Positions 1,315 through 44,996 of a DNA stretch of 64,000 nucleotides are shown piece after piece. The notes beneath the pieces are model-generated. The model ran no database searches. It saw only the letters and a program-made list of their open reading frames with translations, and was not told where the DNA came from. The stretch lies in assembly GCF_044324875.1 (NCBI RefSeq), contig NZ_CP172185.1, one strand, 5' to 3'. A program made the position numbers and the translations under genes. Within the stretch, counting starts at the first letter, position 1, and each line of letters starts with the position of its first letter. This stretch comes from Escherichia coli. GTDB lineage: Bacteria > Pseudomonadota > Gammaproteobacteria > Enterobacterales > Enterobacteriaceae.

Positions 1315-2724
1315 ATGTCCGCTGAACACGTACTGACGATGCTGAACGAGCACGAAGTGAAGTTTGTTGATTTGCGCTTCACCGATACCAAAGGTAAAGA
1401 ACAGCACGTCACTATCCCTGCTCATCAGGTGAATGCTGAATTCTTCGAAGAAGGCAAAATGTTTGACGGCTCCTCGATTGGCGGCTGGAAAGGCATTAAC
1501 GAATCCGATATGGTGCTGATGCCAGACGCATCCACCGCAGTGATTGACCCGTTCTTCGCCGATTCTACCCTGATTATCCGTTGCGACATCCTTGAACCTG
1601 GCACCCTGCAAGGCTATGACCGTGACCCGCGCTCTATTGCGAAGCGCGCTGAAGATTACCTGCGTTCCACTGGCATTGCCGACACCGTACTGTTCGGGCC
1701 AGAACCTGAATTCTTCCTGTTCGATGACATCCGTTTCGGATCTTCTATCTCCGGTTCCCACGTTGCTATCGACGATATCGAAGGCGCATGGAACTCCTCC
1801 ACCCAATACGAAGGTGGTAACAAAGGTCACCGTCCGGCAGTGAAAGGCGGTTACTTCCCGGTTCCGCCGGTAGACTCTGCTCAGGATATTCGTTCTGAAA
1901 TGTGTCTGGTGATGGAACAGATGGGTCTGGTGGTTGAAGCCCATCACCACGAAGTAGCGACTGCTGGTCAGAACGAAGTGGCTACCCGCTTCAATACCAT
2001 GACCAAAAAAGCTGACGAAATTCAGATCTACAAATATGTTGTGCACAACGTAGCGCACCGCTTCGGTAAAACCGCGACCTTTATGCCAAAACCGATGTTC
2101 GGTGATAACGGCTCCGGTATGCACTGCCACATGTCGCTGTCTAAAAACGGCGTTAACCTGTTCGCAGGCGACAAATACGCAGGTCTGTCTGAGCAGGCGC
2201 TGTACTACATTGGCGGCGTAATCAAACACGCTAAAGCGATTAACGCCCTGGCAAACCCGACCACCAACTCTTACAAGCGTCTGGTCCCGGGCTACGAAGC
2301 ACCGGTAATGCTGGCTTACTCTGCGCGTAACCGTTCTGCGTCTATCCGTATTCCGGTGGTTTCTTCTCCGAAAGCACGTCGTATCGAAGTACGTTTCCCG
2401 GATCCGGCGGCTAACCCGTACCTGTGCTTTGCTGCCCTGCTGATGGCCGGTCTTGATGGTATCAAGAACAAGATCCATCCGGGCGAAGCCATGGACAAAA
2501 ACCTGTATGACCTGCCGCCGGAAGAAGCGAAAGAGATCCCACAGGTTGCTGGTTCTCTGGAAGAAGCACTGAACGAACTGGATCTGGACCGCGAGTTCCT
2601 GAAAGCCGGTGGCGTGTTCACTGATGAAGCGATCGATGCGTACATCGCTCTGCGTCGCGAAGAAGATGACCGCGTACGTATGACTCCGCATCCGGTAGAG
2701 TTTGAGCTGTACTACAGCGTCTAA
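1315..2724 (+). CDS. glnA: Glutamine synthetase
   Basis: 469-aa [34 protein letters not shown]...; recognised as GlnA. Confidence 0.97.
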
Positions 2725-5779: not shown

Positions 5780-7153
5780 TTAAATCACCCGTGAGAACTG
5801 CTGCATCCGCGCTTTCTGGCGCAGATAGGTATCAAAGCACATGCAAATGTTGCGGATCAGCAAGCGACCTTTCGCCGTCACCTGAATCCCCTTCTCATCC
5901 ACATCCACCAGCCCATCTTTTGCTAACGGGGCGAGCAGCTTGAGATCTTCCGCAAAGTAATCAGCGAAGTGCAAATCCCACTGTTGCTCAATGGGAGCGT
6001 AATCCAGACGGAAGTTGCAGATGAGCGACTTAATCACATCGCGGCGAATACAGTCATCACGCGTTAGCGCAATACCACGCCACAGCGCATTGCCTTGTTC
6101 ATCCACTTGCTGATAGTACTGCTTCAACTCTTTCTGGTTCTGCGCGTAGCAGTCGCCAATCATGCTGATGGCGGAAACGCCCATCCCCAGCAGATCGGTA
6201 TCGCCCTGAGTGGTGTAGCCCTGGAAGTTACGGTGCAGCACGCCTTCACGCTGGGCCACCGCCAGCTCGTCATCCGGACGGGCAAAGTGATCCATACCGA
6301 TAAACTGATAGCCCGATTGCGTCAGGAAGGCGATGGTTTCCTGCAGGATATCGAGTTTTTGCTGCGGACTCGGCAGGTCAGCATCTTTGATTTTGCGCTG
6401 AGCAGCAAAAATGGTCGGCAGATGCGCGTAGTTAAAGACACTCAGACGATCGGGGTTCAGCTCCGCCACACGTTTCAGGGTAAAAGCGAAACTCTCCGGC
6501 GTTTGTTTCGGCAGGCCGTAAATCAGGTCGATGTTGGTGGAGGTAAAGCCAATCTCACGCGCATGGTTAAGCAGTGCAAAGATGAATTCTTCATCCTGCT
6601 CGCGGTTAACCAGACGTTGCACTTCTTTGTTGAAGTCCTGCACGCCCATGCTCAGGCGATTAAAGCCCTCGGCGCGTAAATGATCGAGTACATCCAGTTC
6701 GATTTCGCGCGGATCGACTTCGATCGAAATCTCCGCATCGGCATTGAACTGGAAGTTTTCGCGCAGCAGCTTCATCAGACGGCTGATTTGCGCTTTGTTC
6801 AGATACGTCGGCGTACCACCGCCCCAGTGCAGCTGGCTCACCTTGCGCCCGGCAAAAAGCGGTGCACGATGGACGATTTCTTGCTCCAGCGCGTCCAGAT
6901 ACTGATCGGCCTTGTGCTGCTGGCGAGTAACAATCTTATTGCAACCGCAGAAGTAACAAAGCTTATGGCAGAACGGGATATGTACGTAGAGAGATAATGG
7001 ACGCTCAGGATAGCGCGCCACGGCTTGTAAAAACGCCTGTTCGCCGAAGTCTTCTGAAAACTCCAGCGCGGTCGGGTACGAGGTGTATCGTGGCCCGGAA
7101 TAGTTATATTTCTGGATCAGGGCCAGATCCCAGTCGATTTGCTGTACAGACAT
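5780..7153 (-). CDS. hemN: Oxygen-independent coproporphyrinogen III oxidase (radical SAM)
   Basis: ORF ...MSVQQIDWDLALIQKYNYSGPRYTSYPTALEF... with CxxxCxxC radical-SAM motif (HIPFCHKLCYFCGC); start taken at the second Met. Confidence 0.95.
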   Translation of the reverse strand: MSVQQIDWDLALIQKYNYSGPRYTSYPTALEFSEDFGEQAFLQAVARYPERPLSLYVHIPFCHKLCYFCGCNKIVTRQQHKADQYLDALEQEIVHRAPLFAGRKVSQLHWGGGTPTYLNKAQISRLMKLLRENFQFNADAEISIEVDPREIELDVLDHLRAEGFNRLSMGVQDFNKEVQRLVNREQDEEFIFALLNHAREIGFTSTNIDLIYGLPKQTPESFAFTLKRVAELNPDRLSVFNYAHLPTIFAAQRKIKDADLPSPQQKLDILQETIAFLTQSGYQFIGMDHFARPDDELAVAQREGVLHRNFQGYTTQGDTDLLGMGVSAISMIGDCYAQNQKELKQYYQQVDEQGNALWRGIALTRDDCIRRDVIKSLICNFRLDYAPIEQQWDLHFADYFAEDLKLLAPLAKDGLVDVDEKGIQVTAKGRLLIRNICMCFDTYLRQKARMQQFSRVI

Positions 7154-7341
7154 GCTCACTCCTTCCGATGGCGTCTCTGGCGGCTACGGCGTACCGGCGG
7201 ATGCCCGTTTCGGGTCATCAGCCGGTTGCGCAGCCACTTTTGTCGCCGCGACAACCGCTGTAGTTTAACGAATAACCACACCAGATAACATATAACCGGA
7301 AGGGTTATCAGCAGAACGGGAAGGCCCACGGCGGCAATCCG

Positions 7342-7851
7342 TTAGTTGCCCCGCAGCAGACGCATCATGTCTTCTTGCTTCTCGTCTTCTTCCTCTTCTT
7401 CGTCATCGTCATAAGAGAGGCCGAGTTTCTGCATCAACTCATCAATACGATCCAGTTTGGCATCCACCCAGGATTGCTCTTCGGCGCTCAGGGTTTCGCC
7501 TGCCTCCAGACGTTCCAGCAGCGCATCCAGACGCTCATCCGTTTCCAGTAACTCCAACTCCGCCTGCGGTGAAAGCATAGGTTTCTCACTCTTCGGTTTG
7601 TGCTGTTTGGTGACTTTTTCAGTCACGCCCAATGGAATAGGGGTTTTACTGCCAATACGTGGATCTTTCGGTGCGTTCTGGCCTTTACTGCCTGACGTGG
7701 TGTTACCGCCCGCTGCGCGGCTGCCCGGCGCATGACCACGACGTTTTTTCTGACGCTTACGGTCACGAGCTTCCTGATCCAGCTCCTCGCGTGTTTTTCG
7801 ACGCGCTTTTGCATGACCTTTGCTGCGTGAGTTTGAAGATGATGGTTTCAT
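7342..7851 (-). CDS. yihI: Der GTPase-activating protein YihI
   Basis: [19 protein letters not shown]... basic N-terminus and acidic C-terminus ([12 protein letters not shown]); start placed at MKPSS inside the longer track ORF. Confidence 0.9.
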
Positions 7852-7917
7852 AATGGTTCGTCTTTTAGCCGTTTTATTCAGTATAGATTTGCGGCGGAAT
7901 CTAACAGAAAGCAAGCA

Positions 7918-8162
7918 AAGAAAAAAGGCGACAGATTACTCTGTCGCCTTTTTTCCTGACTCATAACCCTTAACGGGTCTTACAATCCTTGCAGGCCGCC
8001 AACACACCCTGTTTTTCCATTAGCCGGAACAATCCGTGTTGATTCCATTTCCGTTTAATTACGTCTCCGGACGTTTGTCTTCCTGACAATCCTCTGTCTT
8101 CGCCTCCTGGCGCTCCTGACCCTCATCCTGAGTCATTGTTCCTGTTAGCGTCCTCGCTCTAT
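7918..8162 (-). ncRNA. csrC: CsrC small RNA (CsrA-sequestering)
   Basis: Reverse complement matches remembered CsrC, with repeated GGA-containing motifs and a terminal hairpin (aggcgacag...ctgtcgcct) plus U-run; lies in the yihI-engB intergenic region as in K-12. Confidence 0.85.
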
Positions 8163-8432
8163 GGGTGCTACTTTACGCCTTTGCTTTAAACAAACAATCA
8201 ACCGCCATCAGTATTTGCACATTTTCAGAGTTTTATATAAAAGCAATTAACTGATTTATATAGCTTATTTGACATGCATCGCAGAATTTTCTCTGCTATT
8301 TCGCATAAAGACTATCGGCAATGTCTCACAAAGCGTATGGCTTTTACTTACAACGCTCACGCCGAAAAATCCGCCTTTTATTATGGTTCAGGTATAATCG
8401 CCGCAAAGCTTTGACTGACGGAGACGACCGCT

Positions 8433-9065
8433 TTGACTAATTTGAATTATCAACAGACGCATTTTGTGATGAGTGCGCCTGATATTCGCCACCTACCTTC
8501 CGATACCGGAATTGAAGTGGCTTTTGCAGGCCGTTCCAACGCAGGTAAATCCAGCGCGCTGAACACGCTGACTAACCAGAAAAGCCTGGCGCGGACCTCA
8601 AAAACCCCAGGGCGCACCCAGCTTATCAACCTGTTTGAAGTGGCTGACGGCAAGCGTCTGGTTGACCTGCCCGGCTATGGCTACGCGGAAGTCCCGGAAG
8701 AGATGAAGCGCAAATGGCAACGCGCGCTCGGCGAATACCTCGAAAAACGTCAGAGCCTGCAAGGTCTGGTGGTGCTAATGGATATTCGCCATCCGCTGAA
8801 AGATTTGGATCAGCAGATGATTGAGTGGGCGGTAGACAGCAATATCGCCGTGCTGGTGCTGCTGACCAAAGCGGACAAACTGGCAAGCGGCGCACGTAAA
8901 GCGCAATTGAATATGGTGCGTGAAGCGGTGCTGGCGTTTAACGGTGATGTGCAGGTTGAAACGTTCTCTTCACTGAAGAAACAAGGCGTGGACAAGCTGC
9001 GGCAGAAACTGGATACCTGGTTTAGCGAGATGCAGCCTGTAGAAGAAACGCAGGACGGCGAATAA
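8433..9065 (+). CDS. engB: Ribosome biogenesis GTPase EngB/YihA
   Basis: 210-aa ORF from a TTG start, with P-loop GRSNAGKSS and TKADK motif. Confidence 0.93.
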
Positions 9066-9187: not shown

Positions 9188-9299
9188 CAATAAAAAACGC
9201 CCCAGTCATTACTGACTGGGGCGGCTAAAATATTCAGCCAAATCCGATTACGTGAAGTAAAAGGTCTGAAAGATAGAACATCTTACCTCTGTACCCTAC
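9188..9299 (-). ncRNA. spf: Spot 42 small RNA
   Basis: Reverse complement reads GTAGGGTACAGAGGTAAGATGTTCTATCTTTCAGACCTTTTACTTCACG...GCCCCAGTCAGTAATGACTGGGGCGTTTTTT, matching Spot 42 and its intrinsic terminator. Confidence 0.9.
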
Positions 9300-9446
9300 G
9301 CGACTAACTTTACTCTTTTTTGTTCAGTTCAGAAAGCATTTTTTGTAATTTTTTTTCAGTTGTTGCATAGGAATTTCTAATAGCCATCACAAAACGTGAC
9401 AGCTTATGTTGCTTACTTACGAAAAAAGGGCATGTTCAGGCGAATC

Positions 9447-18393: not shown

Positions 18394-18513
18394 ATGCCTG
18401 GCAGTTCCCTACTCTCGCATGGGGAGACCCCACACTACCATCGGCGCTACGGCGTTTCACTTCTGAGTTCGGCATGGGGTCAGGTGGGACCACCGCGCTA
18501 CGGCCGCCAGGCA
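18394..18513 (-). rRNA. rrfA: 5S ribosomal RNA
   Basis: Reverse complement reads TGCCTGGCGGCCGTAGCGCGGTGGTCCCACCTGACCCCATGCCGAACTCAG...GGAACTGCCAGGCAT. Confidence 0.97.
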
Positions 18514-18605
18514 AATTCTGTTTATCAGACCGCTTCTGCGTTCTGATTTAATCTGTATCAGGCTGAAAATCTTTCTCTCATCCGCCAAAACATCTTCGGC
18601 GTTGT

Positions 18606-21510
<2,905 letters not shown>

Positions 21511-21684
21511 TCACAACCCGAAGATGTTTCACTTCAGAGTTGCGAAAATTTGAGAGACTCACGAACAACTTTCGTTGTTCAGTGTTTCAATTTTCAGCTT
21601 GATCCAGATTTTTAAAGAGCAAAACTTCGCAGTGAACCTTTGCAGGTACACTCTGAAGTATTTTTTATTTAATCACTACAGAGA

Positions 21685-21760
21685 TGGTGGAGCTATGCGG
21701 GATCGAACCGCAGACCTCCTGCGTGCAAAGCAGGCGCTCTCCCAGCTGAGCTATAGCCCC
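21685..21760 (-). tRNA. alaT: tRNA-Ala (UGC), 16S-23S spacer
   Basis: Reverse complement GGGGCTATAGCTCAGCTGGGAGAGCGCCTGCTTTGCACGCAGGAGGTCTGCGGTTCGATCCCGCATAGCTCCACCA. Confidence 0.97.
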
Positions 21761-21802
21761 ATAACATGTAGTTAAAACCTCTTCAAATTTGCGGTGCAAA
21801 TT

Positions 21803-21879
<77 letters not shown>

Positions 21880-21947
21880 GTAGAGGTTTTACTGCTCATT
21901 TTCATCAGACAATCTGTGTGAGCACTGCAAAGCACAGTTCTTTAAGG

Positions 21948-23489
<1,542 letters not shown>

Positions 23490-36961: not shown

Positions 36962-39204
<2,243 letters not shown>

Positions 39205-39217
39205 TTCCGGTCTCCTG

Positions 39218-39973
39218 TCAGAACTTATAACCACGATGCAACGCCACAACCCCTGCCGTCAGATTGTAGTAGTCGACACTTTCGAATCCGGCATCCTGCA
39301 TCATGGCTTTCAGGGTATCCTGATCGGGATGCATACGGATGGATTCTGCCAGATAACGATAGCTGTCGGCGTCGTTCGCGACCAGTGAGCCAATACGCGG
39401 CAGCACATGGAAGGAGTATGCATCATAGGCTTTGCTCAGCGGCTCGATAATTGGCTTCGAGAACTCAAGCACCAGCAGGCGGCCGCCGGGTTTCAGCACG
39501 CGATACATTGAACGCAGTGCTTTATCTTTGTCGGTGACGTTACGCAGACCAAACGAAATGGTGATGCAATCAAAGGTGTTATCCGGGAACGGCAGCGCCT
39601 CAGCGTTCGCTTGAACATACTCAACGTTGCCAATCACACCGATATTACGCAGCTTCTCGCGTCCCATTTTGAGCATGGATTCATTGATATCAGCAAGGAC
39701 CACTTTGCCAGTTTCTCCGACCAGGCGGGAGAATTTCGCTGTCAGGTCGCCGGTGCCACCAGCCAGATCCAGCACGGTCTGCCCACGGCGTACGCCGCTG
39801 CAATCAATCGTGAATCGCTTCCACAAACGATGAATACCAAATGACATCAAATCATTCATGACATCGTATTTTGATGCCACGGAATGGAAAACGTGGGCGA
39901 CCATATCCGCTTTTTGTTCCTTCGCGACGGTCTGAAAACCAAAGTGCGTCGTTTCTTGTGACTTATCCACCAT
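39218..39973 (-). CDS. ubiE: Ubiquinone/menaquinone C-methyltransferase
   Basis: 251-aa ORF with SAM-binding motif [10 protein letters not shown]. Confidence 0.96.
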
Positions 39974-43862: not shown

Positions 43863-44996
43863 ATGAGTGATATTATTTACCTGAACATAACCGGAGAACA
43901 ACAAGGATGTATTTCCTCTCGTTGTGGAACGAGCGCATCAATAGGTAATCGCTGGCAGATTGGCCATGAAGATGAAATCTTCGCGTTCTCGCTCTCTAAT
44001 AGTATTACGAATACAGGCAAAGGGTCACAATTGCATGGCCTTAGTTTCTGTAAATTGATTGACAAAAGCTCCCCGTTACTTATTAACGCTATTAACAATA
44101 ACGAGCAGTTGTTCATGGAGTTTGACTTCTATCGGATCAATAGATTTGGTCGATGGGAGAAATATTACAACATTCAACTTCGCGGCGCGCTCTTATCAGC
44201 AATCAATCACCTGTTTACTGAGAACAATCTGGATACAGAAACCATCACTGTCAGTTATGAATATATACTCTCCAGGCATCTGATTGCTAATACTGAATTT
44301 AGTTATTTGGCATTTCCCGATAACTACAACCGTCTGTTTATACCACGGCCAAAAACTAAAGATGATAATGGCCTCAAAACACTCAATAGTAAAGCGGTTG
44401 GCAGACTGCTTGCTGCTGGCGGCATATACAATGGGAATATCGAAGGATTCAGGGAAACAGCAAACAAGTTGGGAGGAGATGCACCTGCTGGTTACGATCA
44501 AGTTATGGATAACAAAGGGTTACTCATCGCTGGTGCTTCAATAGTTGCTGGAGTTGTTCTGGGAAGAATGAGATTCCCTGATTTGGAATCACTTGAGCAT
44601 TTCGGAGCCAGAGGAGCAGTATCAGGAAGACCATTTAATCCCGACCTTGCCGGTGGTCCAATTGAAAACCTGACGATAGATGGCGTAACAATCAACAGGG
44701 AAGGTATCGCTATTGTTGAAAAGCATATCTCCAGATTTGATCATGATCCAGCTAATGATGTAATGATTTCAAGGCTAAAGAAAATAGCAAATAAAGAATT
44801 GCTTCCTGAAAAATACGATCTGAACTACTATACTCATGAATGTCGCGAGTATCAGCGTTATTGTAATTTAGGATGGGAAACAGGTGAACCGAAAGGTTTA
44901 GATGGATATGAATTATGGAATAATGTACATACTGCAACTCTAGAAGACTTTAAAATTAAAGATACTGACTTATTTCATCCGGATGCAAAAAAATGA
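43863..44996 (+). CDS. Hcp-domain protein with C-terminal extension (candidate Hcp-fused type VI secretion effector toxin)
   Basis: 377-aa ORF in AT-rich DNA. N-terminal ~155 aa follow the Hcp family pattern (YLNITGE...LHGLSFCKLIDKSSPLL...YYNIQL), alignable by eye with E. coli Hcp. The C-terminal ~220 aa have no family I can assign. Family call is by recall, not by search. Confidence 0.7.
   Translation: MSDIIYLNITGEQQGCISSRCGTSASIGNRWQIGHEDEIFAFSLSNSITNTGKGSQLHGLSFCKLIDKSSPLLINAINNNEQLFMEFDFYRINRFGRWEKYYNIQLRGALLSAINHLFTENNLDTETITVSYEYILSRHLIANTEFSYLAFPDNYNRLFIPRPKTKDDNGLKTLNSKAVGRLLAAGGIYNGNIEGFRETANKLGGDAPAGYDQVMDNKGLLIAGASIVAGVVLGRMRFPDLESLEHFGARGAVSGRPFNPDLAGGPIENLTIDGVTINREGIAIVEKHISRFDHDPANDVMISRLKKIANKELLPEKYDLNYYTHECREYQRYCNLGWETGEPKGLDGYELWNNVHTATLEDFKIKDTDLFHPDAKK

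Follow-up and report, generated by a model that had tools for sequence, protein, structure and literature searches.

A csrC gene nearly identical to that of K-12 between yihA and yihI in an Escherichia coli genome

The locus described here lies in a 64,000-nucleotide stretch of Escherichia coli DNA (contig NZ_CP172185.1 of assembly GCF_044324875.1) that was analysed as a whole and is called the window below. It is bounded by two protein-coding genes. Downstream and co-oriented with the locus, yihI (Der GTPase-activating protein) occupies 7342..7851 on the minus strand and was recognized by a match to NF003560 (169 bits); upstream and divergent, yihA, also called engB (ribosome-biogenesis GTPase), runs from 8433 to 9065 on the plus strand and matched TIGR03598 (YihA/YsxC; 252 bits). 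Both assignments agree with the K-12 annotation and with a preliminary description of this DNA, which had named yihI and engB as the flanking genes. The HemN ORF is found at 5780..7159, minus strand. The same arrangement, with yihA divergent and yihI co-oriented, is the published context of csrC (PMC1488887). The preliminary description had also pointed to a gap of 500 bp that the ORF track leaves unexplained. ORFs indeed do not account for the gap, but measured from start codon to start codon it is 581 bp long.

An Rfam 15 scan of the whole window assigned 7909..8162 on the minus strand to RF00084 (CsrC) with 277.9 bits (E=1.2×10−87), which is 4.5 times the gathering score of the family (61 bits). 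The match was full length, extending over model positions 1-255 of 255, and was repeated in a focused scan. CsrC was the top-scoring member of clan CL00106 at the locus, and overlapping weaker matches of the clan were dropped. In K-12, the curated record gives csrC as b4457, 'small regulatory RNA CsrC', 246 nt long, at NC_000913.3 4051036..4051281 between yihA and yihI. By alignment of the intergenic regions this gene maps to 8162..7917 of the window, with 245 of 246 nucleotides identical (99.6%). From the full-length RF00084 match and the mapping of b4457 we place csrC (CsrC sRNA, 246 nt) at 7917..8162 on the minus strand, with +1 at 8162. The preliminary description had put CsrC at 7918-8162 on this strand and had named an Rfam scan for the family as the check; the scan returned a match over the whole family model on the same strand and at the same coordinates, and only the 3' end differs, by 1 nt, from the K-12 mapping. 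Its remark that the RNA is well known is equally sound, given the near-identity to b4457. CsrC has been characterized since 2003.

The only substitution relative to K-12 csrC is at window position 8019 (RNA position 144), where U replaces the A of K-12. It sits directly 5' of a GGA and changes AAGGA to AUGGA, so that the A(N)GGA form is retained, and we expect no functional consequence. The complete yihA-yihI intergenic region of 581 bp differs from K-12 at 3 positions and is 100% identical in many strains, O157:H7 among them.

The gene is almost universal in the species. It was present in 5,424 of 5,426 complete E. coli genomes, with at least 99% identity over its 246 nt in 5,359 genomes and 95-99% in the remaining 65. 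A record of 169 kb labelled 'plasmid unnamed02' (NZ_CP170376.1) carries yihF-polA-spf-yihA-csrC-yihI-hemN-glnGLA. We considered and rejected a mobile csrC copy in this case, as the segment is the ordinary chromosomal polA-glnA region; the record is probably a mislabelled chromosomal fragment from a hybrid assembly, or else a large excised segment.

For the 245-nt CsrC RNA the minimum free energy was -87.4 kcal/mol, with z = -6.8 against shuffled sequences. A terminator scan identified a Rho-independent terminator at 7918..7957 (minus strand), whose stem of 18 pairs, including 7 G-C, precedes a U-tract. Its A-tract/GGCGACAGA stem leads into the loop GUAA, which is followed by UCUGUCGCC and a final U6CUU. 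The terminator claimed in the preliminary description is therefore present, at 7957..7918. Several other matches proved to be this hairpin again. On the plus strand, a CsrC match at 7911-7955 with a score below the threshold (42.9 bits) is the palindromic terminator seen from the other strand, and further sub-threshold Rfam matches there (Thr_leader, STnc40 and others) were dismissed as the same element.

To follow the locus outside E. coli, relatives were retrieved from bacterial contigs, one genome per species, by a conserved-core pattern with 25 specified exact bases. The search recovered 40 loci in Citrobacter, Enterobacter, Salmonella, Escherichia, Leclercia, Lelliottia, Pseudocitrobacter, Superficieibacter and Huaxiibacter. 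Because the pattern demanded 25 exact bases, only fairly close relatives were returned, with no Klebsiella, Serratia or similar. Downstream and co-oriented yihI was found at 40 of 40 loci, and yihA was divergent upstream at all 36 loci whose contig data extend that far, the other 4 contigs falling short.

When the Rfam structure was laid on the alignment of 41 sequences, 90.4% of cells were paired, compared with 39-47% when the partners were slid. In the terminator helix, which has 16 pairs in Rfam, the figure was 99.1%. Helix 2 fell to 68.7%, as MAFFT misplaces it by one base in the Enterobacter clade. Compensatory change was seen in 3 pairs only, for example in helix 1 (A-U/G-C split 21/20) and helix 5 (U-A/C-G, 26/14), and a covariation test on the 41 sequences found no excess of compensatory pairs or of pair types over shuffles. 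This thin support is attributable to the high similarity of the homologs; the covariation is weakly consistent with the Rfam structure.

The RNA is rich in GGA triplets. Within its 246 nt it has 14, compared with 2 in the reverse complement, so that the repeated GGA motifs mentioned in the preliminary description are real and show a strong strand asymmetry. They are candidate CsrA-binding sites by motif count and extend over 7954..8153 on the minus strand, with the first G at 8153, 8142, 8128, 8116, 8107, 8092, 8083, 8068, 8052, 8046, 8035, 8018, 7988 and 7956. Thirteen of the 14 have the form AGGA or ANGGA. The total equals the 14 CsrA-binding sites given for CsrC in PMC8151843. A count of GGA in predicted loops had been proposed as a further check: on the Rfam consensus structure, 6 triplets fall in hairpin loops and 5 in single-stranded linkers (together 11 of 14), and the other three are located at a bulge or stem edge, in a stem and at the terminator base.

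Could GGA richness simply be a chance trait of a purine-rich intergenic region without function? Base composition does contribute. In shuffles preserving mono- or dinucleotide content, the mean was 7.6-8.9 GGA, about half the observed count, and 14 were reached in about 0.8-0.9% of trials. The excess over shuffles is only moderate because CsrC RNA is purine-rich overall; about half of the GGA excess comes from purine richness and the remainder from motif arrangement. Against the minus-strand background of the window, however, with a mean of 3.5 GGA per 246 nt (sd 1.9), csrC is the maximum in 64 kb, and its triplets are confined almost entirely to one strand. The second GGA-densest 246-nt stretch in the window, 44434-44679 on the plus strand with 12 GGA, is probably coding sequence.

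The alignment also speaks against chance. The 40 loci had 13-16 GGA each, and 13 of the 14 sites were kept in at least 39 of the 41 sequences, whereas neighbouring unpaired bases drift. Outside the stretch covered by the search pattern, column identity in the 41 sequences was 97.9% for GGA, 89.2% for paired positions and 78.7% for other unpaired positions; three further GGA sites, whose conservation is imposed by the pattern itself, were left out of this comparison. Judging from these alignments, selection acts on the GGA motifs themselves. With a full-length match to a curated family in addition, we give no credence to an origin of the motifs by chance.

RefSeq records annotated by PGAP offer another account of the region. 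In these, a csrC ncRNA feature is absent and a pseudo-CDS ('hypothetical protein; frameshifted; internal stop') is placed inside csrC, equivalent to window positions 7970-8136 on the minus strand. It was seen in 40 of 40 evenly spaced ranked records and in the three regions inspected more closely (L001, 2797-2963; L043, 727-893; L044, from NZ_CP170376.1, 6027-6193), O157:H7 and a K-12 derivative included. Taken literally, this annotation would make 8136..7970 the remains of a degraded protein-coding gene, and the fact that all inspected PGAP-annotated records have it at csrC, like the short ORFs of 22-39 aa on the RNA strand, could be cited in favour. Yet no reading frame is conserved among the 41 sequences: only 6 of them have the ATG of the 25-aa ORF, the TTG-initiated frame can be as short as 3 aa or as long as 63 aa, and the frame and position of the longest ORF differ between genera. 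Conservation tracks GGA motifs and stems rather than codons, and the curated K-12 record is an ncRNA. Open frames are found in csrC because purine-rich sequence has few T-containing stop codons. We regard a decayed gene as vanishingly improbable, and the pseudo-CDS looks like a systematic pipeline artefact from stop-poor, purine-rich sequence. With SpfP in the neighbouring Spot 42 in mind (see below), we also considered a small ORF or a dual function of the RNA and rejected it, as neither a start codon nor a frame is conserved.

This has consequences for users of the annotation. An ORF-only track leaves the 581-bp gap, and PGAP partly fills it with a spurious pseudogene while the sRNA goes uncalled. 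Flagging CsrC at this locus corrects a real and systematic weakness of annotation and averts its reading as an unexplained region. The biology contains nothing new, since csrC is here already known, intact and ordinary; the systematic PGAP mis-annotation is the sole useful by-product.

Upstream of csrC, the sequence predicts a binding site for phosphorylated UvrY (UvrY-P), the imperfect inverted repeat TGTGAGACATTGCCGATA at 8313..8330 on the minus strand (-168 to -151). It has one exact match in the whole window and equals the csrC site that was footprinted and cross-linked to UvrY in E. coli (PMC4682653). A TGTAAG half-site is located 16 bp further upstream, at 8347..8352 on the minus strand (-190 to -185), with the spacing to the csrC inverted repeat reported in the same study. 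In the upstream alignment, TGTAAG and the left half of the repeat, TGTGAGA-AT, stand out as conserved islands across genera.

A scan of 7700-8600 on both strands with a strict sigma-70 consensus found no promoter. For csrC this would be expected of an activator-dependent promoter, and the promoter elements proposed here for csrC, yihI and yihA were placed by position and cross-genus conservation. From the position relative to +1, the putative -10 element of csrC is TAAAGT at 8170..8175 on the minus strand (-13 to -8), and the putative -35 element, separated by a 16-nt spacer, is TTGTTT at 8192..8197 (-35 to -30). In 38 sequences, GTAAAGT around the former was near-invariant and TTGT of the latter invariant. 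A perfect TATAAT is present on the plus strand at 8393-8398, 35 nt upstream of the TTG start of yihA/engB and inside the cross-genus conserved block GGTATAATC; it is likely the -10 element of yihA. Its distance to the UvrY sites of csrC, which are on the opposite strand, is only about 60 bp.

On the other side of the gene, the proximity of yihI raises the question whether the stretch mainly serves yihI, as the 5' leader or upstream regulatory part of its transcript, and is not an sRNA gene in its own right. The two are co-oriented, the start codon of yihI follows the terminator after only 65 nt, and their linkage was invariant in the 40 loci. Between them, however, stands a strong terminator with 18 pairs and a U-tract, and the 65-nt spacer behind it contains TATACT (7880..7885, minus strand), a putative -10 element of yihI that was invariant in 41 of 41 sequences and suggests a separate promoter. 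Both the K-12 annotation and the literature moreover treat csrC as a discrete RNA of 245-246 nt. A role as yihI leader is in our view extremely unlikely, and we retain the independent sRNA gene, although partial read-through of the CsrC terminator into yihI could occur.

The 40 nt past the CsrC U-tract, 7880-7920 on the minus strand (CTTTGCTTGCTTTCTGYTAGATT...TATACT), varied hardly at all over the nine genera, less than much of CsrC does, and are probably the yihI promoter. The linkage of csrC to yihA and yihI, together with this invariant post-terminator sequence, might instead reflect functional coupling, for example regulated read-through. BarA-UvrY/Csr signalling would in that event feed directly into ribosome-assembly control. 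We consider such coupling very unlikely, and the conserved spacer is more simply accounted for by a promoter of yihI's own.

Matches to other RNAs lie elsewhere in the window. Spot 42 (spf; RF00021, 122.8 bits) is at 9191-9309 on the minus strand, between polA and yihA, and the current K-12 annotation has spfP, a 15-codon ORF, inside it. Weak UvrY cross-linking near spf has been reported (PMC4682653). An Rfam match to the 'Erse' sRNA (315 bits) at 38599-38850 on the minus strand covers precisely the final 252 nt of a 216-aa ORF (38599..39249, minus strand), and the stop of this ORF overlaps with the start of another, of 546 aa (36962..38602). The match probably falls on the 3' terminus of ubiJ (yigP), which lies upstream of ubiB; the EsrE sRNA reported there is disputed as simply coding sequence. 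The ES222 sRNA matched at 1024-1131 on the minus strand (129.9 bits), in an intergenic position upstream of a 469-aa ORF (1315..2724, plus strand) that by map position is probably glnA. A complete rRNA operon extends over 18396-23489 on the minus strand, with 16S, two tRNAs (21688-21879), 23S and 5S, and a StyR-44 match (21518-21617) just upstream of 23S; from its position relative to polA it is probably rrnA.

Taken together, we are close to certain that 8162..7917 on the minus strand is E. coli csrC, which by its sequence would specify a CsrA-sequestering decoy RNA activated by UvrY-P and ended by a terminator. Its product would be a discrete RNA of about 245 nt, with ends placed by the K-12 annotation and the terminator, and the lack of a conserved ORF agrees with its being untranslated. 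In the proposed mechanism, the csrC promoter would be weak and would be activated by phosphorylated UvrY bound some 160 bp upstream at the imperfect inverted repeat, with transcription ending at the strong intrinsic terminator. The 246-nt untranslated RNA would then show its approximately 14 GGA, mostly in short hairpin loops or single-stranded linkers. One CsrA dimer can bind two GGA, so that each CsrC molecule would sequester several dimers. CsrA would be titrated off its lower-affinity mRNA targets, so relieving the control that it exerts over glycogen metabolism, biofilm, motility and other functions. Binding of multiple CsrA dimers and antagonism in vivo by the CsrC of the window are assumed from its 99.6% identity to K-12 CsrC. 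For the latter, PMC7652899 cites Weilbacher et al. 2003 for high-affinity CsrA binding and antagonism. More generally, CsrC is described as a CsrA-sequestering RNA that is activated by BarA-UvrY and whose loss is compensated by CsrB (PMC7652899, PMC4682653, PMC8151843), and its turnover as rapid and dependent on CsrD and RNase E (PMC7652899, PMC8151843).

Among known systems, the closest is K-12 CsrC itself (b4457, RF00084), which has the same neighbours, 14 GGA, terminator, UvrY repeat and half-site as csrC of the window. CsrB of E. coli (RF00018, also in clan CL00106) has a length of about 369 nt. It resembles CsrC as a multi-site CsrA decoy with a GGA-in-loop layout and in its UvrY-dependent activation through a far-upstream inverted repeat (PMC7652899, PMC4682653). 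For CsrB, 22 GGA sequences (PMC7652899) or 18 CsrA-binding sites (PMC8151843) have been counted. In contrast to CsrC, CsrB adjoins syd and requires IHF, and its palindrome is near-perfect, whereas the repeat in the window is imperfect. An assignment of the locus to CsrB (RF00018) was rejected, as CsrC scores highest within the clan at this place, the neighbours are yihA and yihI and not syd, and there are 14 GGA and not 22. Beyond the enterobacteria, RsmY, RsmZ and RsmX of Pseudomonas and CsrB1-4 of Vibrio are, like CsrC, GGA-loop sRNAs that are activated by GacA/UvrY and sequester CsrA/RsmA (PMC1488887); they have other genomic contexts and share no detectable sequence homology with CsrC.
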